From contig OY969557.1 in assembly GCA_963701025.1 (NCBI GenBank), positions 442,042 through 506,041 of the forward strand: a stretch of DNA of 64,000 nt, read 5' to 3'. Under the pieces are notes generated by a model that did no database searches, was not told the origin of the DNA, and worked only from the letters and a program-made list of their open reading frames with translations. The position numbers and the translations under genes are program-made. Positions 739-57,548 of this stretch are shown one piece after another. Every line of letters begins with the position of its first letter. The stretch's first letter is position 1. Source of the DNA: an uncultured bacterium. GTDB lineage: Bacteria > Patescibacteriota > Minisyncoccia > Phycocordibacterales > PALSA-1337.

Positions 739-917
739 ATGAGTGATGATCACGAATTGGGTCACGAAGCACGGATGATTGTCTTCAACCTGAAGAAGGA
801 ACAGCTTGAAGCTGAACAACTTCGTAGGGAAAGAGATCAAGTCACGAAAGACGAACTGTGGAAGAAGAAATGGTATGTTCGTCTCACCCGATGGGCAATC
901 AGTCTGTTTCGCAGATA
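739..917 (+). CDS. small K/E-rich hypothetical protein (59 aa)
   Basis: AAGGAA RBS 5 nt upstream of the ATG. Followed by a hairpin terminator. Shorter than the ORF-track cutoff. Confidence 0.3.
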
Positions 918-966
918 GTGGTATCTCCACCAAAGAGCCAAGATAAGTGCTCATCACAAAACTTTA

Positions 967-1001
967 CCCCGCAGACTTGTTCCAGCGGGGTTTTAACTTT
1001 T
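967..1001 (+). terminator. rho-independent terminator (CCCCGC..GCGGGG hairpin plus T-run)
   Basis: Inverted repeat ccccgcagacttgttccagcgggg followed by ttttaactttt. Confidence 0.5.
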
Positions 1002-1030
1002 ATATAAAAATGATTTTGAATTTTTCCTTC

Positions 1031-1056
1031 TTGACTTCACTGAAAAATGGTAAAAT
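1031..1056 (+). promoter_or_regulatory. promoter TTGACT ... TGgTAAAAT (extended -10) driving the recombinase, near-leaderless
   Basis: -35 at 1031-1036. TGn-extended -10 at 1048-1056. The ATG at 1063 lies about 7 nt downstream of the -10. Confidence 0.5.
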
Positions 1057-1062
1057 TACCGC

Positions 1063-2677
1063 ATGACCGCAAAAAAATATTTTATCTACACCAGAAAATC
1101 TACCGACACCGAGGATCGGCAAGTCAGAAGCCTTGCCGACCAGCTCTCCGAGCTGCGCGAGCTCGCCAGAAAGGAGCAGATCGAGGTCATGGATACCTTC
1201 ATTGAGAAGCAGACTGCCAAGATTCCTGGTAGGCCAGTATTCGCGGAGATGTTAGAGCGTATAGAGGCCGGCGAGGCCTCCGGTATCCTCGCTTGGCACC
1301 CCGACAGGCTCGCTCGCAACTCGGTTGATGGAGGAAAGATCATCTACTTAGTGGATACTGGGCATGATCACAGACCTGAAGTTCCCGACATTCTGGTTTG
1401 ATTCGACACCACAGGGTAAATTCATGCTCTCGATCGCTTTTTCACAGTCGAAATATTATGTCGACAACCTATCGGAAAATGTTAAGCGCGGTTTCCGCCA
1501 GAAATTGAAGAACGGCATCTGGCCACAGAAGGCTCCGATTGGATATTTGAATGACAAAAAGACCAAGCTCATCACCATTGACCCCGATAAGGCTCCTCTG
1601 ATCAGGAAAACCTTCGAGGCCTACGCCACTGGCACATATACCCTCTCCGGATTGCGTAAGGCTATGGGCGAGCTTGGTCTCACAGGTCACGGTGGCAGAG
1701 ATCTTTCCATTTCAAACTACCAGTATCTTCTCAAAAACCATCTCTACTACGGCCTCATATATTTCCATGGAGAGTTTTGGGAGGGCAAACATGAGCCCAT
1801 CATCACAAAGAAGCTGTATGACACGGTTCAAGAGGTCATGACGCATAAAAGCAAGCCTCAACATGAGGGAGGATTGAAACCATATGTATATCGCGGACTA
1901 TTCAAGTGCGCCGAGTGCGGATGTTGCATCACCATTGAGACCAAGAAAGGTCATAACTATTTGAGATGTACAAAGCGCAAAGGACCATGTTCGCAAAAGT
2001 ATGTCCGCGAGGAGGCTATGACTGATTTGATCAAAGAGGAACTGAAGAAAGTATCTTTGTCTGATGCTGTAGCAGATTGGCTCATCGCAGAGGTTGAGAA
2101 AGACCGCGCCATAGACGACAATTCATCGAAAAACCAGATTCAGAAGGTCAGTGACGACGTTGTGGCAATCAACACTAAGCTCGACAAACTCATGACGGCG
2201 TACCTTGAAAACGCTCTCACACTAGAGGAATACCAGACTACCAAGAACAAATTAGTGACCGAAAAGCAGATTTTGAAGGATAAACTGGCATCTTTCGGGC
2301 GGGTCTCGACCAGTCGGTTCGAACCGGTCATCGATTTCCTAAACGACTGTAGACAGGCCGGTATTTTGGCGGAAAGCACGGATGCGGCGAAAATTCGCTC
2401 ATTCTTCCAAAAAGTCGGTTCGAACCCACTCGTCCGCGACCGCGCCCTCGTTTTTTCGCCTCGGGCACCCTTCGCCTTCGTCACCCAAATCCCCAAAAAC
2501 ACCAGCAAAGAAGCGGGCGGGGCGGAAGGGGGGTTTCAGGGGGGAATTCCGCCCCGCCCTCCGCACGTGCGATGCATCTCGCCTTTTTCGGGCGATTTTG
2601 AGTTTTCTGAAAAATTGCTGCGGGACTTGGACTCGAACCAAGATAACATCCTCCAGAGGGATGTGTCCTACCATTAG
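1063..2677 (+). CDS. large serine recombinase (resolvase domain + recombinase domain + zinc ribbon), frameshifted near 1380; 3' end uncertain
   Basis: N-terminus YTRKSTDTEDRQVRSLADQ ... LAWHPDRLARN is a serine recombinase catalytic domain. It continues in the +1 frame as ITDLKFPTFWFDSTPQGKFMLSIAFSQSKYY plus a CxxC..C zinc ribbon. The ORF tail overlaps the antisense tRNA-Gln and is probably spurious beyond about 2480. Confidence 0.8.
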
Positions 2678-2688
2678 ACGATCCCGCA
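2618..2688 (-). tRNA. tRNA-Gln(CUG)
   Basis: Cloverleaf with a U1:A72 pair, a G73 discriminator, a GGTTCGAGTCC T-arm and anticodon loop CUCUGGA. Confidence 0.85.
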
Positions 2689-2758
2689 AAATGGAAAAGT
2701 GCACCTTGCAGAATAACCCAAAAAGAGCTATAACACAATAAACCAACAAGGAGGACAA

Positions 2759-3370
2759 ATGATCGAAACTATTGAAACGACAGCGCTCTCGCCGGAGAGC
2801 GTCATTGAAAGATTGGCCCAGGCCAAAGTGCGCACCGATAACTGGGGCAAGCGCCCAGGAACAAAATCTCTCGAAGAATTCATCGGGTACTGTCAGACGG
2901 GCGAATACGAGCTTGATGACGACGGTGACATATTGAAAGTCCGGGTGAATGTCGCCACGGCCTTCGTGCGTTGTATCATCCTCCCCCGCCTATGGGAAAT
3001 GTACGAGGACGGGAGGTATCGGGTCGACACCCACGTGGCCAATCGGAGGAACCGGTTCGAGGGCAGCGTGGCGGCTCGCATACGAACCCTCTGGGGCGAG
3101 GACGCGGAGGGGGCCATCCGCCGCGGGATCGCCAAAGAGCTTGGCCCGATGGAACCTCGGTTCGAGGATCCGAACGAATACGAGCTCCGGTACGATCGTG
3201 AAGAATCAGTGAACGCGGTGGGCGCGGAGGGGTTTCCCGGTATTCCCGCCACGTACCTTGTCCGACGGCATGTCTGCATGGTCCCTCCCGACATGTGCCA
3301 CCGCAGGCATATTCTCGCTTGCGATGATGGAACTGCCATCGTGTTCAAATGGAACGAAATGAGGATGTGA
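2759..3370 (+). CDS. hypothetical protein
   Basis: Strong SD (AAGGAGG, 6 nt spacing). 203 aa. No recognisable motif. Confidence 0.6.
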   Translation: MIETIETTALSPESVIERLAQAKVRTDNWGKRPGTKSLEEFIGYCQTGEYELDDDGDILKVRVNVATAFVRCIILPRLWEMYEDGRYRVDTHVANRRNRFEGSVAARIRTLWGEDAEGAIRRGIAKELGPMEPRFEDPNEYELRYDREESVNAVGAEGFPGIPATYLVRRHVCMVPPDMCHRRHILACDDGTAIVFKWNEMRM

Positions 3371-3445
3371 TCGGCGGCTCGACACGGTATCCCATCGCTA
3401 TCGGAGCGGCGGGATTTTTTTATTCCCGTATGCTAGCATGGCTAT

Positions 3446-3994
3446 ATGAGATATTTCATCGGTTGCCATATCCGCGGCGAAGCCGCCGAATATTACAAAG
3501 CCACCTGCGCCGACTTGGCCGCCCGCTTCGGCGTCGAAGACGTCTCGGCCATCGTGCCGCCGCATATCACCGTCAAAACAGCCTTCGAAAGGCCGTCAGT
3601 GGAGACCGTCGACGACGTGGTTTCTCTCATCGCCTCCGCGTCTCCGGCCCATTCCATAGGGCTATCAGGGTGGAACCATTTCGGAACGCGCACCATATTC
3701 ATCGACGCTCCGGCCGCGCCGTCGGAGCTCAAGGGTCTCGTTGATGGCCTCCTCGGTAAGCTCGAGGGCGCCGGCATCGCCATCTCTCCCCAGGACCGGG
3801 CCTTCCAGGTGCGCCTGTCCGTGGCCCGCTTCCTCAAGCCGAAAGAATGCGAAGATATCTGGCGCCATCTCCAGTTATCGCCCGCGCCGAAATTCGATCT
3901 GTCGTTCGACAATCTGACCATATTCGTCAAAGAGAACCGTGACGACAAGGCCTGGAAGATATTGAAGACTTTCCCGCTCATGGGGAAGAAGTAG
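3446..3994 (+). CDS. 2H phosphoesterase superfamily (LigT-like) protein with degenerate second HxT motif
   Basis: First motif PPHITV is present. The LigT 'HITLAR' position reads RLSVAR (H->R). Size (182 aa) is typical for LigT. Confidence 0.5.
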   Translation: MRYFIGCHIRGEAAEYYKATCADLAARFGVEDVSAIVPPHITVKTAFERPSVETVDDVVSLIASASPAHSIGLSGWNHFGTRTIFIDAPAAPSELKGLVDGLLGKLEGAGIAISPQDRAFQVRLSVARFLKPKECEDIWRHLQLSPAPKFDLSFDNLTIFVKENRDDKAWKILKTFPLMGKK

Positions 3995-4072
3995 AGACCT
4001 TACGCCGAGGTGATGGCGGCCAAAGCGATAGCCGCGACGAGAGCTATTCCGATTCCGGCAGTCATGTATTCT

Positions 4073-5838
4073 TTATTCCTTTATTCTTTTATTCCTTGCG
4101 TTCATTCCCTTCGCCGCTTTGATAAATTCAGTGAACAATGGGTGCGGCATGAGGGGCCGAGCCAGGAATTCCGGATGGAACTGGGTGCCGAGAAAGAACG
4201 GGTGCGCACTGCGCGGCAATTCGGCTATTTCCATGAGAGTGCCGTCGGGAGACTTGCCCGAAAATACAAGACCGCCCTTTTCAAGCTTTTCTATGTATTT
4301 CGGATTGACCTCATAGCGGTGGCGATGGCGCTCTTTGATGGTGGTCGTCGGCTTCGACAATTTCTTGCCTTGGAAATAAGAATAGGCTTCCTGGGCTATA
4401 GTGCCCTTGCCAAGCTTAGCCGGATAGAGACCCAGTCGCATGGTGCCGCCGTAATTCCCCTCTGCTATCTTCTTTTTTTGGTCGGGCATGATGTCTATGA
4501 CCGGATGCGGTGACTTAGGGTCTATCTCCGCCGTGTGGGCGCCGTGGAGTCGCAAGACGTTCCTGGCGAATTCCACAGTCATGAGCTGCATGCCGTAGCA
4601 CAGGCCGAAATACGGTATACCCTTCTTCCGGGCGTAGTTGATGACTGCGAGCTTGCCCTCGATGCCGCTCTCGCCGAAGCCGCCGGGCACGATGATGCCG
4701 TCGAACGAAAGGAGGTTGGAGTAAGGAGAATGAGGCAAGGATGATTCGGTTTCCGAGTTTTTTCTTCTTTCTCCCTGCTTCCTGCTCCCTTCGCCTTGCC
4801 CTCAAAATCGCGGGCATTCACCGTATGGATGACCGCCTTGACCTTGTTGGCGTAAGCCGAAAATTTGATGGCTTCCAAAACCGAGATGTATGAGTCAGAC
4901 AAGATGAAATCCCCTGTATTGAAATATTTGCCCACGATGGCGATGTTGACGATGTTCTCGGAATGATCCTTGATGCCCTTTGCCATCTTTTTCCAAGCTT
5001 GGAATCTTTTATCCGTCTTCCGTGCATCCAAACCTATAGATTTCAAAAGCAACTCCGCTAAGTGGTCTTTTTCAAAATTTATCGGAACGTCATATATGCT
5101 TTCTATATCAGGCGCAGATATGACATGCTTTGGCAGAACATTGCAAGTAAAGGCGATCTTATCCTTGCGTTTCTGATCCAATGCGATCGGTCCTCTGGCT
5201 ATGATGAAATCGGCCTGCACCCCGTAGCTGTTCAACTGCTTCACGGCATTTTGGGTAGGCTTGGATTTCATCTCGCCTATCGTGCCCGGTACCGGAAGAT
5301 AAGAGACCATGATGAAGACCACTTCATGTGGATGCCTTATTTTTAGAACGCGCGCCGCCTCGATGAACATGACATTCTGGTAATCTCCTACCGTCCCTCC
5401 GATCTCGACAATCGTGACATCAGATTTATTTATCTTGGCGCTATGTTCTATCCGCCGGACAATCTCTTCACGGACATGGTCCGCATCGACGAATCGACCG
5501 CCGTATTCCAACGCTCGTTCCTTATCGATTACGCGCTTGTAGACCATGCCACTGGTGATGTAGTCGTCGGCGGTCAGGTCGCGGCCCAGGAAGCGCTCGT
5601 AATTTCCCATGTCCTGGTCCGTCTCAAGACCGGAATCGAGGACGAAGACCTCGCCGTGCTCGGTCGGATTCATGGTGCCGGCGTCCACGTTCAGGTATGG
5701 GTCCACCTTGACCAGATTGACCTTGTAGCCTTTGGCGGAAAGGAGCGTGCCGATAGAGGAAGTGGCTATGCCCTTGCCGACGCCGGACATCACGCCGCCG
5801 ATGACGAAGATGTATCTGTGGGGACTCGGCTTCTTCAT
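4073..5838 (-). CDS. pyrG: CTP synthase, interrupted by a 1-nt frameshift inside a GA-rich insertion (about 4745-4800)
   Basis: N-terminal synthase domain (GVGKGI..., DPYLNVDAG) in one frame. GATase domain (GIIVPGGFG, LCYGMQ, HPEF) in another. The shift falls in gaagaaaaaactc. Confidence 0.9.
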
Positions 5839-9565: not shown

Positions 9566-9641
9566 TGGAGCCAAAGCCCGGGATCGGACCGGGGACCTTC
9601 GCTTTACGAAAGCGACGCTCTACCAACTGAGCTACTTTGGC
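9566..9641 (-). tRNA. tRNA-Thr(CGU), CCA encoded
   Basis: GCCAAAGTAGCTCAGTTGGTAGAGC...CTTTCGTAAAG (anticodon CGT)...GGTCCGATCCCGGGCTTTGGCTCCA. Confidence 0.85.
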
Positions 9642-10087
9642 ATCATTTTCATCAACATGCGCCCTTCCAAGATTCTACTACTAACAACTCTATCAACGCG
9701 ACCATACCCCTTGTTTGACCCTCCATACGTAGGGGTAAGAGAATCGCAATTTGGACACAATAACCTGAGATTATTTTCAATGTTATTACGCCAATTGCCA
9801 TCTATATGATCGGCCACAAGGGGAACTATACCAGTTTTTATGTTCATAATCGACCACCCACATAAGACACATCTATTATCAAACTTCTCACGTAAATATT
9901 TCTTAACATGTACCGAGACAGTGCCGATGCTACTTAAACCGCTGACTTCACCCGATTTCCATCTCTTAATGTATTCTCTGCGCTGGAATTCCTGTTGACA
10001 GGTATTGCTGCAGTATTTGTACGCAGCTTTAGCGGGTTCTCCGCCACAGACGAGACATTTCATTCTTATTTTCTTAGGCATTGGCAT
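9632..10087 (-). CDS. free-standing HNH endonuclease (151 aa)
   Basis: CxxC...CxxC zinc-knuckle pairs plus a [25 protein letters not shown] core. Sits between the two tRNA-Thr genes and overlaps the 5' end of tRNA-Thr(CGU) by about 10 nt. Confidence 0.75.
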
Positions 10088-10139
10088 AATGCCGAGTATA
10101 TCTAATCTATGAAACCCCGTCAAAAAATAATTTCTATTG

Positions 10140-10405
10140 TGGAGCCGTTGATCGGGATTGAACCGATGACCTCGCCATTCGTTTACACCTCTCCTTACGG
10201 GAGGACTAGACTGTATCTTTCTCCGCCTATCGTGGAGACCCTTGTCAGTCGTTCGGGCGCTATGCATAGCAAGCGCCACGGTCTTATCCATCGATAATAC
10301 GTCGGACTTTAACCGTTATTCGGGATTCACATATATGTTACCAAGTATGTGGGCAGGGTCTTACGACCTACCAATGGCGTGCTCTACCAACTGAGCTACA
10401 ACGGC
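10140..10405 (-). tRNA. tRNA-Thr(GGU) interrupted in the anticodon loop (after U36) by a 190 nt intron
   Basis: Exon 1 (10370-10405) is GCCGTTGTAGCTCAGTTGGTAGAGCACGCCATTGGT. Exon 2 (10140-10179) is AATGGCGAGGTCATCGGTTCAATCCCGATCAACGGCTCCA. Together they give a canonical 76 nt tRNA. Confidence 0.7.
10180..10369 (-). ncRNA. candidate group I intron (no ORF) in tRNA-Thr(GGU)
   Basis: The 5' exon ends in U and the insert ends in G (omega-G). There are GNRA hairpins (GGUC-GUAA-GACC; CUCC-CGUAA-GGAG). The stretch AAGAUACAGUCUAGUCC resembles the group I S element/P7 (UAGUC) with a partner GACUG. Confidence 0.5.
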
Positions 10406-10470
10406 ATGATCTGGTTTAACTACCAAAACAGCTACAACGGCATTTTACTTTAAAAATAAAAGAACTTCTG

Positions 10471-10544
10471 CGCGCCCGATGGGACTCGAACCCACGACCT
10501 CTCCCGTGACAGGGGAGCGTTCTAGCCAGCTGAACTACGGGCGC
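10471..10544 (-). tRNA. tRNA-Asp(GUC)
   Basis: GCGCCCGTAGTTCAGCTGG...CCTGTCACGG...GGTTCGAGTCC, G73 discriminator. Confidence 0.9.
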
Positions 10545-10610
10545 ATATGCGTGCGACTCCAGCGCACGGACAGCCAGTAATGTAGCAGAAACGGGACGAA
10601 AAACAAAGGG

Positions 10611-10684
10611 TGCCGAGGGTGGGACTCGAACCCACAACCTGTCGCTTATGAAACGACTGCTCCAACCGATTGAGCTACCTCGGC
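10611..10684 (-). tRNA. tRNA-Met(CAU) (elongator, or Ile2 if lysidinylated)
   Basis: GCCGAGGTAGCTCAATCGG...anticodon loop TTCATAA...GGTTCGAGTCCCACCCTCGGCA. Confidence 0.8.
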
Positions 10685-10791
10685 AACATTGGATACAATA
10701 AAGGAAAAACGGCCGATGCGCAATCATCATTTGCAATCAGCCTGACAAAGTGGCATACTAGGCCAATCGTTTCGTCGCTGTTTCGTCCCAT

Positions 10792-10863
10792 CGCGGGGTA
10801 GAGCAACGGTAGCTCGTCAGGCTCATAACCTGAAGATTGCCGGTTCGATTCCGGCCCCCGCAA
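10792..10863 (+). tRNA. initiator tRNA-fMet(CAU)
   Basis: Near-identical to E. coli tRNA-fMet (CGCGGGG...CTCATAA...CCGGCCCCCGCAA) with the C1:A72 mismatch. The anticodon stem has A:U at 29:41. Confidence 0.85.
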
Positions 10864-18771: not shown

Positions 18772-19299
<528 letters not shown>

Positions 19300-19492
19300 G
19301 CCTGAATTATAGCAGACAGGGGCGCGCGAGCGCCATATGCTGATCTTTGCCATATTTTGCCACATTCCGAACATTTCAAGGTCAAATCTTCATCGTTTCT
19401 TGAGCGGAATTTCATCAGTTCTTTATCGTCTCTGAGACAGGAGGTAAAGGCCAAAAAGAAGTTGGCGGGGTCAGTAAAGTAAGCCTGCTCAA

Positions 19493-19545
19493 TATCCCCC
19501 ATACGCAACCCCGCCCGACCGGTCGAGGTGAGCGGGGGATATTAC
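19493..19545 (-). repeat. GC-rich hairpin repeat family (copy 1)
   Basis: CCCCACGCAAACCCGCCC..GGGCGGG-like hairpin. Minus-strand reading is hairpin + TTGCGTATGGGGG. Copies also at 19891-19926, 20417-20439 (half copy) and 20971-21006. Confidence 0.6.
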
Positions 19546-19667
19546 AAGTAAAACAATTCGTGTATAGTTTCTTAAGGAATACAGGAGGACACCGAACGGA
19601 CTATCGATATTCATCATAATGGAACCCGGAGTAGATTTCTTCCGGCGCGAAGAGCCGAAGATCTCAT

Positions 19668-19820
19668 TCAAGCTTCTTCCGTTTCTTCCTTAACATTGCG
19701 CAAAAGCCTCTCAAAGGTATTGCCCTGGGTAAAAATGTTGAATGCTTCATTGGCGGCCACGTAATAACCGACTTCGCCTTTGAAGACTAGGAAAGTGACG
19801 ATTTTATTGCTTATTTTCAT
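19668..19820 (-). CDS. HicB-like antitoxin fragment (50 aa), orphan
   Basis: MKISNKIVTFLVFKGEVGYYVAANEAFNIFTQGNTFERLLRNVKEETEEA resembles the HicB/UPF0150 N-terminal domain. No hicA partner. Confidence 0.35.
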   Translation of the reverse strand: MKISNKIVTFLVFKGEVGYYVAANEAFNIFTQGNTFERLLRNVKEETEEA

Positions 19821-19890
19821 GGCTCCAATATAGCACAGAGTCGGACTTTCGGCACGCGTTTTGCGAGTACCGATTCATATTTGGTAATGT

Positions 19891-19926
19891 CCCTACGCAA
19901 ACCCGCCCACCGGAGGGGCGGGCGGG
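19891..19926 (-). repeat. GC-rich hairpin repeat (copy 2)
   Basis: ccctacgcaaacccgcccaccggaggggcgggcggg. Confidence 0.6.
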
Positions 19927-20014
19927 AATCTTAGGCGTTTTTTTATCGAAACTTCATCGTTTCTTGAGTGCTTTTTGAGCGTTTCTTTATCTCGGCCATA
20001 TAAGATGTGGGTGT

Positions 20015-20236
20015 ATGAAGAAATTCATCAAAAGATTCTCAAAATGGATGCTGATTGCCGAACGATTAGACGACAGCGAGCATGTGCCGCCGCTTTTCAA
20101 GGAAAGCGATATTTGGTGGTGCCATTTAGGCGATAATATAGGCACTGAAATAAGCGGCAAGGGAGATATGTTCGACCGACAGTCTTCCTGGCCCAAGTTA
20201 AGTATATGGATTATAGAAGGATGGACAATCTCATGA
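20015..20236 (+). pseudogene. truncated MazF/PemK-like toxin fragment
   Basis: ESDIWWCHLGDNIGTEISGKGDMFDRQSSWP resembles the MazF N-terminus (RGDIWxVDLDPTxGSEQxGxRP). Stops after 73 aa. Confidence 0.3.
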
Positions 20237-20970
20237 CATCAATCAGTGATGCGGAAATGACGATGGTGCGTGAAAATTTCATAAGGCTTTTCTCCATAAA
20301 CATTCCTCGCCCGCCTTCCGGAGAAGAACGGGCGGACGTGGGGAATCCCCAAAACATATAGGCATTGTGATCCAAGCAATAGTTTTTTGTCAACTATCTG
20401 TCTCAAACCATTTTCTCCCCACGCAAACCCGCCCACCGGATTGGTTGCACCATCAACATGACTGTGGTATTACATGAGGCATAAAATTCCTATCGAGACT
20501 TAGCATAAACTTAAAGACGTGACATTCATTTTCGCTTCTTTATTCGACCTGATAATGTAACTTGTTGTAAAAGGGATTGCGGTAGATAATCTATTTCAAA
20601 CCGGAATTAATTAACTCATTGGATTGGATCAAAAAGGTCTAATGCTATGCCTGAAAGCAGACGTTACGTCACCGATAGTATTTATCAACACGATAGGTGT
20701 GCTTGGCATGAAAGAGACGAAAAAGGAAGTAAGGATGGTCTAAATTTATTGCTTTCTTCATGGGCAATATGAATCACCTGCTTATGTATATATGTTACCC
20801 TAGCCCTCATATATTATTACCAGACATATGTGTTTCAAATATCTTTGCTCGTTGATCTTCTCCTGTTCATTTCAATCGAGATCGTCTGCTTTGCTTGTAG
20901 CGTATAGCCAAGAGAGAGAATACAAGAAGGGAATCGCAAAAGTAGAAAAGAAACCGGTCTAAAGATATAT

Positions 20971-21006
20971 CCCCACACAAACCCGCCCACCGGAGAGGCG
21001 GGCGGG
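20971..21006 (-). repeat. GC-rich hairpin repeat (copy 4); likely terminator of pilin gene 21099-21548
   Basis: ccccacacaaacccgcccaccggagaggcgggcggg. On the minus strand this is hairpin + TTTGTGTGGGG. Confidence 0.6.
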
Positions 21007-21098
21007 TAGAGAACAAGGCTACTTGCTACTATACTAGTAAACTCCATTGTTCGCGGGACAAGTAGCACTGGCGCGAGTGAAAGTACCATTAGTTCCGG

Positions 21099-21548
21099 TC
21101 AGATAGTAGCAGTATTTCCTGTAGAGTCTACACAGTAACCACCATTATTCGGAAAAGACACTTCTATAGAATAAGCCGTGCAGAGAAGACCGCTAGCGTT
21201 ACAGCCAGAGTCATATACCTTCAAGTATCCTGATTGAGTAGTAATGTCGGTTTTTAATGTCCCGAGAGTCGGAGTAGTACCTACCCAATTACCAACACTA
21301 TAATCGTCGACTGCGGCGGCGGCGTTACCAGTTGCGTGAAGATCGGAATAACTACTCGTATAATCAGTTTCCAATTGTGTCCTAATATTCGCCGCGTCTT
21401 CCTGAATGCGAGTTGCAACACCTTTACCCCTAGCGCTATTCAAGCTCACCAACACGACGGATGACAAGATACCGATGATGGCGATGACGACGAGCAATTC
21501 AATGAGGGTGAAGCCTCGGCCACCGGCGAATTTTGTATACCTTTTCAT
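21099..21548 (-). CDS. type IV pilin (PilA paralog)
   Basis: GRGFTLIELLVVIAIIGIL. Confidence 0.85.
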   Translation of the reverse strand: MKRYTKFAGGRGFTLIELLVVIAIIGILSSVVLVSLNSARGKGVATRIQEDAANIRTQLETDYTSSYSDLHATGNAAAAVDDYSVGNWVGTTPTLGTLKTDITTQSGYLKVYDSGCNASGLLCTAYSIEVSFPNNGGYCVDSTGNTATI

Positions 21549-45332: not shown

Positions 45333-45698
45333 TGGTGGAGATGCGCGGAATTGAACCGCGGTGCAATCGAAGTTAGGTCGGCTGATTCTACGACGGTAGT
45401 ATCATTTGAAGTTTAATAGCCGTGGTGAAAAATAATACAAAATACACAGCCACGATCTCTAAGTTTCGGAGAAGAGGAGTGAGAAGCTCCCCTGCCCTAC
45501 ATCCGGGTTATTACGCCCGCTCTAGCGTATGGATCCCGCTAGAGAGACGCGCCCTTATACAAGAGCGAATGCGAAGTCCTTTGCTCCGAAATACGGAGAA
45601 ACAGAAGATTTAGCAATTAGGATTTCCGGCGGATTTACGAGTCACTGGCGCTCGCGCCGCGCGGCCGAAAACTGACGATTGTCGATGCCTGTCATCCC
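45333..45698 (-). ncRNA. ssrA: tmRNA (ssrA)
   Basis: 5' GGGGATGACAGGCATCGACA pairs with 3' ...CCGCGGTTCAATTCCGCGCATCTCCACCA (tRNA-like domain with CCA). Immediately downstream of smpB. Confidence 0.85.
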
Positions 45699-45757
45699 CA
45701 AGTATGAATTGAGAGATTGGGAATTGAATATTGATCTCCAATTTCCAATACCAATCC

Positions 45758-51048: not shown

Positions 51049-51095
51049 ATGAAGGATACATCATACAGGGAGCGGACCATTAGGACAAGATGACT

Positions 51096-52838
51096 CTAAT
51101 GAAACAGATTGTTGAACCAATCGACGATAGCATTCCAAACACTAGCAGTTGCCGCAGTTGTATGAATCATGGATGTTGTTTGAATCGAGCAGGTATGATC
51201 CGTTGTATTGAGCGCATAACCAGATGGGCATGAATACGCAGCCCTAGCCGGTGCAGTGGTCGTCGATGCTGCCGATGTCATGGAGCATGTATTATTCGAC
51301 ATCAAACCATATCCCGTCGGAGTCGGGCACGATTTGGAAGCGATGGCAGAAATCGTGCTCGTCTGACCGCCTATCACAGTTATGCAGGACTCTCCGGAGA
51401 GAGTGGCCCCGGTCGAACATGAGTATGTGACCGTGGCTGGCACAGTTATTGTCGTCGGTTGCGTCGACGATGATGCAGTCGGTTGTGTCGGTGCGGGTGC
51501 GGGTGATGCAGTTGCGGTTGTCGTCGAAGTCGCCGTGCTTGCGGGCGGAGTCGGAACTGTCGTGGTCGTCGCGACTGGAGCCGTCGGAGCCGTCAGCGCG
51601 GTGTCGAGCGTAGGAGCCTCTGGAGCCAATATCTGAACCGGCGGAGGCGACGCCGTCATAGCTCGGGGCGTCATAACACAGACAGCGGTGCTCGTCGCGG
51701 AGATGTTCAACGGATTGATCGACGCTGACGCGGCAAAGCAATAATTCGTCGAAGCGGACGGGCCGGTTGTCTGATACGACATGACGGCCGCGGTGACAAG
51801 AAGCATCCGGATCGATGGGGACGTTTGGGCCAAAGTATATCCGGATATGAGCGCGGAATCGCTGTCAGTCCACGAGATGTTGATCTGGCCGGATGAATTG
51901 ACGCTGGCCGTCAACACGGGAGCGGCCGGAGCGCCGAGAGTCAACAGATATGCGATCGGCGAATATGCCGAATATGTGCCGTCGGCGTACTGCACGCGCA
52001 CGCGATATTGATAATATATCGACGGAGCCAGACCGGTATCGGTGTATGATGCCGTATGCGCCGGCAGGCTGGCTATTTGCGATTGATAATATATCGACGG
52101 AGCCAGACCGGTATCGGTGTATGATGCCGTATGCGCCGGCAGGCTGGCTATTTGCGCTCCGTACGGCGCTCGTTCCACAAGGGCTGCACTCTCGACGGGA
52201 GAATTATCCGTCCATGTGAGAGTTCCGCCTCCTTTCACCTTCGCTACTGCCGTAAGCCCGGAAGGCGCTCCGGAAGCGGTCGTCGCGCACACCGGCGCGG
52301 TGGCCGCCGAACCGTTCACTGGATTGACGTATGACTGGACGGCGAAGCAGTACTTGGTGCCGGGCGAAAGGTTGGCGGTGTAGTACGTTCGAGCCGAGTA
52401 ATTCGCGACTGGTGATGACGGTACGGTGGCGAGAGAGGTGGAAGCGGGAGAGACTTCCGAGACCGCGTAGGAAGCGATGCCGGCGTCATAGTCGTACCAG
52501 GTGAGACCAATGGCTGACGAAGTGGTGGCGGAGGCGGAGAGAGATGGGGTGGAAGACTTGGCCGTCGTCACGGTCGTGGTAGCGGCATATGGTCCGTATC
52601 CCAATAACCCATATTGCAGGCGAACATTGTAGTAATAGGTAGTCGAGTTAGGAAGGCCTGTGTCAGTGTATGTCGTGCTCGTGGCTGTGCCAATGGAGGA
52701 ATATCCGGATGATTGAGAGGTCGAACGCTCGACATCGATACCTGTTATACCGGTCGCTCCGTTGTTGCTCCAAGTGAGCCTGACCTGGCCTTGGGTCGCA
52801 TTGGAAGATGTGAGACTGGTAGGTGTAGTGGAACTAAA
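51096..52838 (-). CDS. FN3-repeat segment of giant surface protein (continuous with 52745-54200 after a 1-nt shift)
   Basis: VRLTWSNN...YYYNVRL and YQYRVRV fibronectin-III signatures, T/S/P-rich linkers. Perfect 75 bp tandem duplication at 52006-52155. Confidence 0.6.
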   Translation of the reverse strand, partial: FSSTTPTSLTSSNATQGQVRLTWSNNGATGITGIDVERSTSQSSGYSSIGTATSTTYTDTGLPNSTTYYYNVRLQYGLLGYGPYAATTTVTTAKSSTPSLSASATTSSAIGLTWYDYDAGIASYAVSEVSPASTSLATVPSSPVANYSARTYYTANLSPGTKYCFAVQSYVNPVNGSAATAPVCATTASGAPSGLTAVAKVKGGGTLTWTDNSPVESAALVERAPYGAQIASLPAHTASYTDTGLAPSIYYQSQIASLPAHTASYTDTGLAPSIYYQYRVRVQYADGTYSAYSPIAYLLTLGAPAAPVLTASVNSSGQINISWTDSDSALISGYTLAQTSPSIRMLLVTAAVMSYQTTGPSASTNYCFAASASINPLNISATSTAVCVMTPRAMTASPPPVQILAPEAPTLDTALTAPTAPVATTTTVPTPPASTATSTTTATASPAPAPTQPTASSSTQPTTITVPATVTYSCSTGATLSGESCITVIGGQTSTISAIASKSCPTPTGYGLMSNNTCSMTSAASTTTAPARAAYSCPSGYALNTTDHTCSIQTTSMIHTTAATASVWNAIVDWFNNLFH

Positions 52839-54200
52839 TTACATGTCGTACCTGAAAGAGCATACCCTGCCGGACAAGCGTATTTCATGATCGCCAACGA
52901 TGTCGGGAGGGTACTACAGGTATTATTAGACGACAGGGCGTAGACTATGTAAGCGGTGTTGGGACATGAATAAGTAGCTGTGGCCGGTGTGGAAGTCGCC
53001 GAAGATATTCCCCCGCCAATGAGGTTGCATGTATTGCCTGATGGAGCATACCGATTATCAGGACATGTGTATCCGAGCACTGTCGCCAATGAAGTCGGGG
53101 TCGTGTTGCATGTATTCGATGATGAAAGGCTGTATATAGCGTAGCTGGTGGATGGACATTTATAGACGCTAGTGGCTGGCATGGTAATGGCAGTCGGAGC
53201 CCCTCCGTTCAAATTACATGTCGTACCGGAAAGCGTGTAGTTGCTGTCGGTGCACACGTATCCGAGTACATTGGCAAGCACAGTCCCATTAGCGCCGCCA
53301 TTGCACGTATTCGAGGATGTGAGACCATAAATGAAACCATTACCAACAGGACAGGCATATACGACAGTTGCGGGCTTACTAGTCGCCGTTGTGACTCCGC
53401 CATTGATGAGATTGCATGCCTTGCCTGACGGAGCATAGCGAGTATCAGAGCAGGTATAGCCTAATACCGACGCAAGAGTGAATTGTTGTGATGCATTTAG
53501 AGGAACGCAGACGTCTGATTGGATGATGGTCGCCGTACCGGTAGGACATGTGTACATGGTCGTGGCTGGTTCAACGATGGGTGATGGCGTTGCGTTGATA
53601 AGACATGTCGTGCCGGAAAGCGTATAGTTTGTGTCAGGACAGCTGTATCCGAACGCTACGGCTGGTATTATTGGTTTGCTGGTATCTATCTGACCAGAGC
53701 TAGTATATGGGGTGCATGTGTTTGACGACGAGCTGAATCCATAAATGAAACCATTACCAACAGGACAGGCATATACGACAGTTGCGGGCTTACTAGTCGC
53801 CGTTGTGACTCCGCCATTGATGAGATTGCATGCCTTGCCTGACGGAGCATAGCGAGTATCAGAGCAGGTATAGCCTAATACCGACGCAAGAGTGAATTGT
53901 TGTGATGCATTTAGAGGAACGCAGACGTCTGATTGGATGATGGTCGCCGTACCGGTAGGACATGTGTACATGGTCGTGGCTGGTTCAACGATGGGTGATG
54001 GCGTTGCGTTGATAAGACATGTCGTGCCGGAAAGCGTATAGTTTGTGTCAGGACAGCTGTATCCGAACGCTACGGCTGGTATTATTGGTTTGCTGGTATC
54101 TATCTGACCAGAGCTAGTATATGGGGTGCATGTGTTTGACGACGAGCTGAATCCATAAATACCGGCGGGGCATCTGTAGACGGGTGTTGCAGCTGCTGAC
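52745..54200 (-). CDS. Cys-rich repeat segment (Y.CP.GY.LSGTTC units) of giant surface protein
   Basis: Repeated CPxG...C modules. Two identical 414 bp tandem copies at 53326-53739 and 53740-54153. Confidence 0.6.
53326..54153. repeat. 2 x 414 bp perfect in-frame tandem duplication
   Basis: 'cataaatgaaaccattacca...' recurs at 53326, 53740 and 54154 (period 414 = 138 codons). Confidence 0.8.
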
Positions 54201-54672
54201 CACTAACGATCACTTGTATGTCCCCAACCTCGGTCGTCGGGTCTCCTGCCCCGTTGCCAGTTACTGTTATAGTGTACGGTGTATCAGTCCAGTCGCTATC
54301 AAATCCACTGACACTTACTTTATATGTTCCATTAGGTGTCGTCGTCGGTACGGAAAATATAAGAGATGATCCATCACTGAGGAACATCATCTATTCCATA
54401 ATATGTACCATCGCTTGTTGTCTGACCGTGTGCTTTTGGTATCAGATTATTCAAAAAATTCCATACAGCATCAAACGTTGAATGTACATTTGCTTCAAGG
54501 ACAGAAGACGGGACCAATGAGGTCGGAGAAACTGGGGTAAGCTTGATCATATTACCAGATGTATCGAATCCTGAACCGGAGACTTTGAAAGTGTTAGTCG
54601 TGGCTCCAGTTACGGGGATGACGCCGCTTACAGCAGGTGGCGCTAAAAAAGTACTGTGATGGTAGAAAAATA
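54100..54672 (-). CDS. N-terminal Ig-like/beta-rich fragments of the giant surface protein (two frames)
   Basis: TNTFKVSGSGFDTS...GTYYGIDDVPQ (54374-54672) and GTYKVSVSGFDSDWTDTPYTITVTG (54100-54390) are related beta-strand repeats in different frames. Confidence 0.4.
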
Positions 54673-54688
54673 ATTATTTATTGCACTG

Positions 54689-56119
54689 CTATCTGGAGGT
54701 GCCGCGCATGAAGCTACTGGTGGAGTCTTCGTCATGCTGTAAGTCGAATGTGCCTCCATAACTAAATGAGTTAATGGTGAAAGGTGCTTCATTCGTTACC
54801 ATTCCTTGAAACAATATATTTATTTCATTACTATTCAGACCATATTTCGTACCGATATCATTGATAGCTTCCTTGATATATTTGACGACTTTCAATCTTG
54901 ATTTAGTACTTATCTGTTTAATACTAAGCGAACTACCTACCTGTACGTCTGGACCGGGATTTAATAATAAGGCCATTCCTAACGATATACTATCAGATAG
55001 ACTCCGCCCGGGAAGAGCCAGGGCGCTTATTATTTTTTTTATAGAATCACTCGGAGTATCTAGGCCCACTAAACCAACAAGGCTTCCAACATTGATGAGG
55101 GCGCTAATATACCATGGGGTAGAGACACTCCCTATAAGCTGATTGGGTAATCTGTCATATATGGCTTTCAATTGTTGGGAAGAAGTCGTATCTGAACCAC
55201 TCGGACAACCCATGGTCACACTTGCGACATTACTATAACCAGTGAATGTGCCATCCGAAAAAGACGTTCGAACACGATATTGATAAGACGTGCCACCGAC
55301 GACGTCTAGATCATTAATAGATTGCACCAGCTTTGAAACTTTCTTGATTTCGGAAAAAGAACCGCCGGACGTAGAGCGCTCGATGCTAAAGTAATCTGCT
55401 AGACCTGATGAATTATCTTTCCATGAAAGAGTCACTTGTGTCGGCGAGGTAGCAATCGCTGTCAAGTTCGATGGAGCATTCGATGCCAGCGCGCTTGCGG
55501 GAATAATCATCGTCACGGAACCGATGGTAACACTGATACTGCCTTTGCTGGCGATATCGTTGGCTACAGTCTGGTTGTATGGGATTTTCAAAGTAAAACT
55601 GTTCAATTTTACAGGCAAGACATTGAGAACAGTTGTGGCTCCTGTAACACTTGTCGGTGTTGCCCCTGAATATATAGCAGTAAGACTTATAGAAAAATCT
55701 GTCGACGATATGGAAATATTGAGTCCGTATGGGCCGTCCGGCTGACCTGTGCCACCGCCGTTTTGTACATGGGTAGGACCATAAGAAATAGCGCCTGGAG
55801 CCAAAGAAATTTGTCCTGCAGAGGAATTTATATAGGCCTGAGTCCAATTCGTGCTTGCGGGACACCATGAAGAACCCGGCCCAACGCTTACTCCGCCAGA
55901 GAACGTGAATGTTCCATTGACAGAGTAGCATGTCGAAACATTGACGCTCATTGGCGATGTTTGAACGCAATTGCCATATTTATCATAGACTCCTTGCGCG
56001 GATGTTCCCACATAACAAGGAAAACCGAGTTGGGCATTCGCTACCCTTGTCGGTGTGAAAAATGAAACCGCAAGCATCAGAACAAAAACCATCGGCACAA
56101 CCGCCACATATTTTTTCAT
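54689..56119 (-). CDS. secreted FN3-domain surface protein
   Basis: Sec signal MKKYVAVVPMVFVLMLAVSFFTPTRVANA. Internal LSWKDNS...YQYRVRTSFSDG FN3 signature. Confidence 0.7.
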   Translation of the reverse strand: MKKYVAVVPMVFVLMLAVSFFTPTRVANAQLGFPCYVGTSAQGVYDKYGNCVQTSPMSVNVSTCYSVNGTFTFSGGVSVGPGSSWCPASTNWTQAYINSSAGQISLAPGAISYGPTHVQNGGGTGQPDGPYGLNISISSTDFSISLTAIYSGATPTSVTGATTVLNVLPVKLNSFTLKIPYNQTVANDIASKGSISVTIGSVTMIIPASALASNAPSNLTAIATSPTQVTLSWKDNSSGLADYFSIERSTSGGSFSEIKKVSKLVQSINDLDVVGGTSYQYRVRTSFSDGTFTGYSNVASVTMGCPSGSDTTSSQQLKAIYDRLPNQLIGSVSTPWYISALINVGSLVGLVGLDTPSDSIKKIISALALPGRSLSDSISLGMALLLNPGPDVQVGSSLSIKQISTKSRLKVVKYIKEAINDIGTKYGLNSNEINILFQGMVTNEAPFTINSFSYGGTFDLQHDEDSTSSFMRGTSR

Positions 56120-56162
56120 AAAAATTAATTTGTTAGTGATGATGACATACTACAACCAATTA

Positions 56163-56173
56163 CCCCCCCCCCC
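56163..56173 (-). promoter_or_regulatory. homopolymeric G11 (C11 on plus) tract in promoter of surface protein gene
   Basis: tacccccccccccgcaaatg lies 44-54 nt upstream of the ATG at 56119. On the minus strand it reads TTTGCG-G11-TAATTGGTTGTAGTATG. Confidence 0.6.
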
Positions 56174-56227
56174 GCAAATGGGCGGTTATTAACATGCCAT
56201 CTGCTACGCCGGACCTCATAGTGAATA

Positions 56228-57361
56228 CTATACACCGATAAATTCTGAATAATTATCGCGATTGATTACTTTCAATTCTTTCCCTTTTATATCATCCTCA
56301 AAAATCTCCCTCGTCGCACGGCTTATACTGCCTTTGGTGAACTTGAATTCATAGCCGTTTAACACACCGCCCTCATCTTCGAATAGATCGATCTCTTGCA
56401 TGTCATACGAGCGAAAGAAATAATACGCCGGATCAAAATTATTGGCGGAGTTTCGTTTCATCCTCTCGAGGATCATGTAATTCTCCCATAGGGATCCGAC
56501 GTCATTTCTCGTGGCGAGAGAATTGAAATTATTGATGAGGGAATTCCTAATGCCAAGATCATAGAAGAAATATTTTTTGAGCTTGGATATGGATTTCCTT
56601 TTATTGGAAGCATAAGGAGATACGGAGAATAGTATGTAAAGCTTTTCGCATATTTCGAGATATCTTTTGACTGTGTTTTTATCTATGCCGAGAGTCCCGG
56701 CCAGCTCTGAAAGCGAGACTTCATTTCCGCTTTGCAAGGCCAGTGCTTGAAGAAGCCTCCTCAAATCATCGGGGTTTCGTATGATGCCGAGAGCCAGAAT
56801 GTCTTTGAACAGATAATTCGTCGTGATGTTTTTTATAATCTCTTTTTTCGTTTCAGCGTCAGGGGCCGTGATGACTTCGGGGTAAGAGCCGTATATCAAA
56901 CGGCTTTCCAACGATTCGCGAAGTTCGATGGGGTTCTTGCCGAGAGAGAGCTCCATTTCCGCGATCGGGAACATGGTGTATGAAAAAAATCTTCCGGTCA
57001 GAGGTTCAGAGACCGACTTTGCCAGATCAAAAGAAGAAGAGCCGGTTACTATGTAATTTTTTTGCGGAAAATTATCAAAAATTATTTTGAGCGATAAGCC
57101 GATATTAGCCACTTTTTGCGCCTCATCGATCACGACAGTATCGTATTTTTTTACCAACGAGCCGAGCTTCTCGAGATTCGCCGATTCGAACAAGACGCGT
57201 GTTTCATCTAGATCGCAATTATAATAAACACTATCTTGTCCTGAAAGAAATTCTTTTACAAGAGTAGTTTTCCCAACTTGCCGTGGTCCATAGATAATAA
57301 GGATTTTTTTCTTGCCTAAATTATTCTTGATTTTCTCCTGTAAATATCTGTGTATTTTCAT
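56228..57361 (-). CDS. AAA ATPase with DUF4143 (paralog of 21659-22783)
   Basis: GPRQVGKTTL, VIDEAQ. Confidence 0.8.
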   Translation of the reverse strand: MKIHRYLQEKIKNNLGKKKILIIYGPRQVGKTTLVKEFLSGQDSVYYNCDLDETRVLFESANLEKLGSLVKKYDTVVIDEAQKVANIGLSLKIIFDNFPQKNYIVTGSSSFDLAKSVSEPLTGRFFSYTMFPIAEMELSLGKNPIELRESLESRLIYGSYPEVITAPDAETKKEIIKNITTNYLFKDILALGIIRNPDDLRRLLQALALQSGNEVSLSELAGTLGIDKNTVKRYLEICEKLYILFSVSPYASNKRKSISKLKKYFFYDLGIRNSLINNFNSLATRNDVGSLWENYMILERMKRNSANNFDPAYYFFRSYDMQEIDLFEDEGGVLNGYEFKFTKGSISRATREIFEDDIKGKELKVINRDNYSEFIGV

Positions 57362-57548
57362 ATGTTTTTGTGTTAAATCACCATTTTTATACTAATTTGG
57401 TGGTTAGATTCACTATATTATACAGAAATCGGTGAATCGGTCAAATACGGTTGCTATTTTATATAATTAACTGGGTTATTTTAACACCATATCATACACT
57501 TAACCCTGTTAAATATAGAGCCAAACTCGTGGACAGTGTATGGTAATA

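Follow-up and report, generated by a model that had tools for sequence, protein, structure and literature searches.

A frame-disrupted surface-protein gene with perfect tandem duplications and an upstream G11 run in an uncultured CPR bacterium

In Neisseria meningitidis, the surface-protein genes porA, opc and fetA carry a poly-G or poly-C tract of ~9-13 nt in the spacer between the -35 and -10 promoter elements, and slippage by one base alters the length of the spacer and hence the strength of the promoter. The Vlp proteins of Mycoplasma hyorhinis, small lipoproteins encoded by a multigene family, combine a poly-A phase switch in the promoter with in-frame tandem repeats, short (about 36-39 bp) and present in many copies, that provide size variation. 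Gram-positive surface proteins of the alpha C/Rib, Esp and Bap type contain many identical module-encoding repeats, with documented copy-number polymorphism and unequal recombination. Bacteria of the Candidate Phyla Radiation (CPR) live attached to host cells and, to our knowledge, little has been learned about variation of their surface. Here we describe a gene for a large secreted protein on the minus strand of a 64-kb stretch of contig OY969557.1 (hereafter the window), which is preceded by a G11 run, contains two perfect tandem duplications and is interrupted by frameshifts. The sequence was found in one sample only. Our preferred reading, which we hold at about even confidence, is that of a surface-protein gene that has recently been silenced or inactivated and is turning into a pseudogene, or that stands in an OFF state, with lesions of the slippage type.

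One ancestral gene in six frame segments

Frame analysis divided the locus into six frame segments separated by five frameshifts (Table 1). Five single-base edits yielded a 1,674-codon open reading frame (ORF) with zero internal stops. An intact homologue of 1313 aa, P0064, is colinear with all of the segments, as are other intact homologues of 1000-1570 aa. The window protein and P0064 are 50% identical over 1,250 aligned columns, and nucleotide alignment of the P0064 gene (L065) with the window gave 80-83% identity. Given the stop-free ORF after five edits and the colinearity with P0064, the locus is, on these alignments, a single ancestral gene, with its reading frame disrupted relative to intact orthologues as in a pseudogene. 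The repaired protein has a signal peptide, an N-terminal beta domain (Cys-containing), an FN3 domain, a helical domain and an IPT-like domain, followed by a Cys-module array, an FN3 array, a Thr/Pro linker, further Cys modules and an aromatic C-terminal tail. A preliminary description of this DNA had proposed a multi-kb secreted FN3/Cys-module gene broken into at least four segments; the gene was borne out and so was the breakage, with the number of segments set too low. The same description had proposed ongoing recombinational length variation and a phase-variation switch for this adhesin-like gene, both of which are putative. The sequence as assembled does not encode the repeat-bearing protein, since the frameshifts leave an N-terminal product of 476 aa only.

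For this N-terminal part, ORF1, the last ~18 residues and the stop codon are outside the ancestral frame. That frame runs on past the end of ORF1 as ...YSMTKTPPVASCAAPPDSSAINNYFS..., matching P0064, and the ORF1 stop is therefore out of frame. Judged by eye, the N-terminus looks like a Sec-type signal peptide (MKKYVAVVPMVFVLMLAVSFFTPTRVANA/Q). With the Pfam fn3 profile (PF00041, cut-off 25 bits), ORF1 residues 215-300 scored 23 bits, slightly under the cut-off, while a domain in segment D, the last segment, scored above it (48.8 bits, E 8.1e-13). An AlphaFold model of ORF1 contained beta-sandwich domains at residues 60-300 with per-residue confidence (pLDDT) of 75-88 and a helical domain of low confidence. 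Foldseek searches with this model returned only generic FN3/Ig tandem matches, with FN3 tandems on top.

The two in-frame tandem duplications of the preliminary description were recovered with Tandem Repeats Finder plus an exact self-match test (2 x 414 + 8 nt and 2 x 75 + 0 nt). Both are 100% identical and free of indels, and both periods are multiples of 3. The longer unit encodes 138 aa with four two-Cys hairpins, corresponding to whole Cys modules, and is present once in the homologue P0057. It is bounded by an 8-nt microhomology, ATTTATGG, common to two homologous modules, as is characteristic of slippage or unequal crossing-over. The 75-bp duplication, in contrast to what modular length variation would predict, sits within one FN3 domain and interrupts it: the fn3 profile aligned over positions 34-77 with both copies present versus 2-78 of 84 after one copy was removed. 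Deletion of one copy thus restores the full fn3 alignment, and this duplication is more likely to be damaging than adaptive.

Table 1. Features of the surface-protein locus and its upstream region (window coordinates).
Feature	Position	Strand	Description	Basis
Ancestral gene	51096..56119	-	large secreted multi-domain protein	colinearity with intact homologues and frame repair
ORF1	54689..56119	-	476 aa; sole part translatable from the start codon as assembled	
Frameshift 1	54744	-	+1, inserted A (TTCGaCTTAC vs TTCG-CTTAT in L065)	nucleotide alignment, frame analysis
Frameshift 2	54645..54650	-	net -1 at or adjoining T6 run	alignment to L065, frame repair
Frameshift 3	54382	-	+1 base (TTCCTCAG vs TTTC-AAG in L065)	alignment to L065
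Frameshift 4	54195..54205	-	-1 in variable linker directly before Cys-module array; exact base not fixable	frame analysis and repair
Frameshift 5	52830..52838	-	-1 at AATTTAGTT, junction of last Cys module and first C-terminal FN3	frame analysis and repair
Tandem duplication, 414-bp unit	53325..54160	-	perfect; 2.0 copies, 100% match	Tandem Repeats Finder
Tandem duplication, 75-bp unit	52007..52156	-	perfect; 25 aa, QIASLPAHTASYTDTGLAPSIYYQ; 2.0 copies, 100% match	Tandem Repeats Finder
G11 homopolymer	56163..56173	-	promoter region, 44-54 nt upstream of ATG at 56119 (C11 on + strand)	
-10-like hexamer	56147..56152	-	TAGTAT (TAATAT in relatives)	conservation in upstream alignment
-35-like hexamer	56172..56177	-	TTGCGG, overlapping first two G of run	weak match, 3/6
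AAA_14/DUF4143 ATPase gene	56228..57361	-	GC content 0.41 (window 0.53); between map and surface-protein gene	

The G11 run and the upstream region

The G11 run, found where the preliminary description had placed it, is the sole G/C homopolymer of at least 8 nt in the window, and no G/C run of that length was present in the comparison DNA for the homopolymer census (595 kb of relatives' and homologues' loci). At this length it belongs to the hypermutable class (G/C runs of ~8 or more); the observed count of G9 matches was equalled in 2 of 100 dinucleotide-preserving shuffles. The run was exactly reproduced in the Logan contig L001 from run ERR11718638, an independent k-mer assembly, which is 100% identical to window positions 58343-55080 (3.26 kb).

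The 108-nt upstream region aligns with those of the homologues P0062 (L066) and P0060 (L073), reading CCCATTTGC-G11-TAATTGGTTGTAGTATGTC...ATG in the window, CCCTTTATGTAAGGCGGTATTTGGTGTAATATATC...ATG in L066 and GCAGGGGAGGCTTTTGGTGTAATATATG...ATG in L073. All three contain the block TTGGT(T)GTA(A/G)TAT (TTGGTGTAATAT / TTGGTTGTAGTAT), and from this conservation we infer a -10-like element, which in the window as in L066 lies 27 nt from the ATG. Located 10 nt upstream of TAGTAT and directly after TTG, the G11 run aligns to interrupted G-rich stretches in the homologues (GGCGG in L066, GGGGAGG in L073), with the window 2-4 nt longer there. For a run of n residues, the spacer between TTGCGG and TAGTAT is n+8 bp, giving 19 bp for G11, 18 bp for G10 and 17 bp for G9. 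A position between -35 and -10 elements, as had been proposed, is reasonable for the run, with a weak match on one side and a hexamer conserved in two homologues on the other. If these hexamers form the promoter, the 19-bp spacer at G11 is predicted to be sub-optimal, corresponding to a weak or OFF promoter. A G11 run is intrinsically hypermutable, and this one is located where a slipped-strand switch would be, with G9 giving the 17-bp optimum. Two other explanations of the run were rejected. For a terminator or hairpin, the RNA fold of the region was not significant (z-score -0.31) and no terminator was called there; for a scar at the junction of the neighboring ATPase insertion, the intergenic region is alignable with the orthologous map-gene spacer over its full 108 nt.

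Silencing, consensus error and other readings of the lesions

Under the preferred reading of a recently inactivated or OFF gene, an intact Paceibacteria surface-protein gene, residing in the variable map-ndk slot, would have acquired three kinds of very recent slippage or indel lesions. Five +/-1 frameshifts would leave the 476-aa N-terminal product as the only translatable part; two in-frame duplications would add 138 aa to the Cys-module array in one case and interrupt an FN3 domain in the other; and an interrupted G-rich promoter stretch would have grown to G11, setting the spacer between the -35-like and -10-like elements to 19 bp. The frameshifts would then be real in the DNA of the organism, and the G11 locus would at most be a contingency locus, either sampled while in an OFF state or fixed in it. 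The lesions appear to be recent because the repeats are 100% identical, no nonsense codon is present, and there is no rate excess from ORF1 to segment B. A long-standing pseudogene was not supported, as nonsense codons are lacking and the rates show no excess once the repeat regions, which align poorly, are set aside.

Several observations weigh against inactivation. There are zero nonsense codons in any ancestral frame, whereas neutral decay with five indels would, by a rough estimate from typical indel-to-substitution ratios, carry ~2-4 stop codons. Tajima-type relative-rate counts versus P0064 from ORF1 to segment B (41 vs 41 and 48 vs 37) showed no excess of amino-acid change; the asymmetry for the whole protein (101 vs 58) arises only from segments C and D, where the alignment of modules is unreliable. 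The combination of five indels, zero nonsense codons and no acceleration would also fit consensus errors of a long-read metagenome assembly, and the sequence is known from one sample. With respect to the promoter, a consensus scan restricted to 16-18-bp spacers called none over the G run, the -35-like assignment is weak with a -35 region poorly conserved in the relatives, and we know of no established promoter rules for CPR bacteria.

The main rival takes up the explanation by consensus errors and, in our view, is possible if somewhat doubtful. The frameshifts would be consensus or polishing errors of long reads, worsened by strain heterogeneity, in a gene that is intact, functional, and both phase- and size-variable, with the G run acting as a slipped-strand promoter switch and the 414-bp repeat providing size variation, as the preliminary description had suggested. 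This would be consistent with disruption by indels alone, with ancestral frames that are stop-free and show no excess of amino-acid change, with the position of frameshift 2 at a T6 run, and with the location of the G run between the -35-like and -10-like elements. That the perfect 2 x 414-bp repeat is resolved within a contig of 876 kb implies assembly from long reads, and the nearest relatives are long-read metagenome-assembled genomes (MAGs). However, frameshifts 1 and 3 are not in homopolymers, and outside this gene intact ORFs lie close together throughout the window, with no other broken gene in the remaining ~59 kb and with the neighboring adk, map, ndk and mbl genes aligning full-length to relatives. 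The L001 contig also agrees base for base over its 3.26-kb overlap with the window; the Logan contigs end at 55080 and 50474, such that the frameshift sites and the repeats are outside their coverage. Finally, the 75-bp duplication disrupts an FN3 domain regardless of the frameshifts.

We also considered, as a speculative and rather unlikely extension, that the locus is the first simple-sequence contingency locus in the CPR/Patescibacteria, a poly-G switch on a giant episymbiont surface protein, with lesions that would reflect a heterogeneous, rapidly slipping population and not a dead gene. Any switching of this kind is putative, as are the identity of the promoter, its OFF state and the reality of the frameshifts.

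It is improbable that the 476-aa ORF1 product (signal peptide, beta domain, FN3 and part of the helical domain) is the present functional unit under control of the G run, with everything downstream a dead remnant. ORF1 has kept its start codon, signal peptide and conserved upstream region, shows no rate acceleration, and its domains were modeled with reasonable confidence, but the truncated form lacks part of the helical domain and all of the conserved downstream elements, including the C-terminal tail, and no short-form family member was found in the homology searches or the HMMER scan. More improbable still is that the duplications and/or G11 are assembly artefacts: artefactual duplications would be perfectly identical as well, and long homopolymers are a classic weak spot of nanopore sequencing, but the independent k-mer assembly contains G11, the 414-bp junction is a clean 8-nt microhomology between homologous modules, in frame, as in unequal crossing-over, and both periods are multiples of three.

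The protein family, its genomic slot and known systems

A full HMMER scan with the Cys-module segment as the query collected 17 relatives, including intact proteins of 1,000-1,570 aa. The intact members are P0057, P0059-P0062, P0064 and the L075 protein (754-4329), the one extra family member from a metagenome scan. The L075 protein carries a peptidoglycan-binding domain (E 6e-18), which supports a cell-envelope location of the family. Common to all of the intact members are the internal motif F(D/E)x(V/I)WNF(F/L)xNL(I/L)Px(A/V)HGQ, embedded in an IPT-like domain, and a C-terminal tail that is aromatic and similar among them, with the pattern S(V/L)W(D/N)xIxxW(F/L)xx(L/W)F[KRH]. The window gene has the colinear architecture as well as both elements in the forms FxxVWNFxxNLIPxAHGQ (STFDAVWNFLNNLIPKAHGQ, 54430-54490) and SVWxxIxxWFxxLF[KRH] (...ASVWNAIVDWFNNLFH, 51099-51150). 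No Pfam family covered the internal motif or the tail; the latter may be a signal for anchoring, sorting or processing that is specific to the CPR. Together, these sequences point to a Paceibacteria-restricted family of large secreted, cell-envelope-associated proteins. The idea of a silent cassette or mosaic, raised by a tail-like motif in segment A, was rejected, as every intact member conserves this motif at an internal position and P0064 matches the locus colinearly.

Variation within the family was seen at the level of domains. In P0059 and P0060 (L077-L080, L073), the helical mid-domain is replaced by an HExxH...DEY segment with a weak Peptidase_M64 (IgA peptidase) match, under the cut-off. 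It thus seems that, in this family, a conserved stalk carries a variable 'head' domain that can be exchanged. Across four samples, the P0059 gene was invariant, with 0-2 mismatches and no homopolymer tract. The two-Cys module (Y-x-C-P-x-G-Y-x-L-x-G-x-x-C) was also present in unrelated secreted proteins (P0063, P0065-P0073); it has no Pfam model and gave weak Sushi and cEGF matches only.

Other searches for copies of the locus yielded little. Word-indexed homology searches with ORF1, with the repaired segments A+B+C and with the helical-plus-IPT region gave self or FN3-only matches, and a scan of the genome contigs with ORF1 found nothing. Exact-protein look-ups for other assemblies or strains returned no record for ORF1 or ndk, nor for ten candidate small or alternative-start ORFs, among which misses for GTG/TTG starts are uninformative (first residue V/L). 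From any other assembly, two short Logan contigs only were recovered, both from run ERR11718638.

The Map protein groups the organism with Paceibacteria/Parcubacteria (CPR) MAGs, the best match being 81% (MFD01223.bin.2.47). Most relatives have the order adk-map-ndk-mbl with map adjoining ndk, and comparison of the slot loci (L002, L011, L018, L020-L022, L025, L028-L030, L066-L068) revealed that the map-ndk gap (51049-57548 in the window) is a variable insertion slot in Paceibacteria, empty in most relatives. In L066, L067 and L068 the slot holds the gene for P0062 (intact, 1130 aa) in the same map-[gene]-ndk-mbl arrangement as in the window, and P0062 is therefore the positional orthologue of the window gene. 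Other cargo includes a HerA/TraG-like 926-aa ATPase and an rve integrase (L002). The AAA_14/DUF4143 ATPase gene in the window has a low GC content and no counterpart at this position in the orthologous locus, and was therefore probably acquired horizontally. Upstream of it is a 187-nt spacer with a weak resemblance to the orthologous map-gene spacer.

Elsewhere in the window, type IV pilin-like genes (prokaryotic N-terminal methylation motif) were noted at 18772-19374 and 21099-21548. The 1.7-kb low-GC stretch between them (19375-21098) contains no ORFs other than small ones (35-84 aa), a few of them resembling toxin-antitoxin fragments by eye, and may be another degraded or mobile insert. An Rfam scan detected ordinary housekeeping features, namely a tmRNA gene (92 bits) together with four clustered tRNA genes (45333-45699 and 9569-10863).

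If a slipped-strand switch on a giant surface protein does operate here, it would be the first in the CPR; a full-text literature search revealed no report linking phase variation with Patescibacteria or CPR. The mechanism class would not be new, with promoter homopolymers described for porA/opc and a homopolymer plus repeats for Vlp, and the novelty would be the host lineage. Should it prove to be a fresh pseudogene or a problem of assembly, the case is an ordinary one, and serves as a warning that perfect repeats and a homopolymer in a long-read MAG need to be checked against the reads. In either case, the analysis has as by-products a Paceibacteria surface-protein family defined by the internal motif and the similar C-terminal tail, and the variable insertion slot between map and ndk.

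How the locus compares with described systems depends on the feature considered. Like frameshifted surface-protein pseudogenes of reduced or host-associated genomes, it has multiple +/-1 shifts, with the damage limited to one accessory gene in a variable slot. Unlike these, it is without nonsense mutations or accelerated substitution, so that either any decay must have begun very recently or the lesions are not real. The 414-bp repeat resembles those of the alpha C/Rib, Esp and Bap type in encoding whole modules (four two-Cys hairpins), whereas the window has two copies in one genome and no LPXTG signal. With porA, opc and fetA the window shares a G/C homopolymer in a putative spacer, 17 bp for G9 and 19 bp for G11, but the -35 element is weak, the downstream ORF is broken and the host is an uncultured CPR bacterium, the likeness being one of sequence. 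Compared with Vlp, the window has one 5-kb gene, with no paralogue seen in the window, two copies per repeat, and one repeat that damages a domain; nevertheless, as with Vlp, perfect in-frame tandem repeats and a homopolymer in the putative promoter occur together in one surface-protein gene, and the bacterium is host-attached with a reduced genome.

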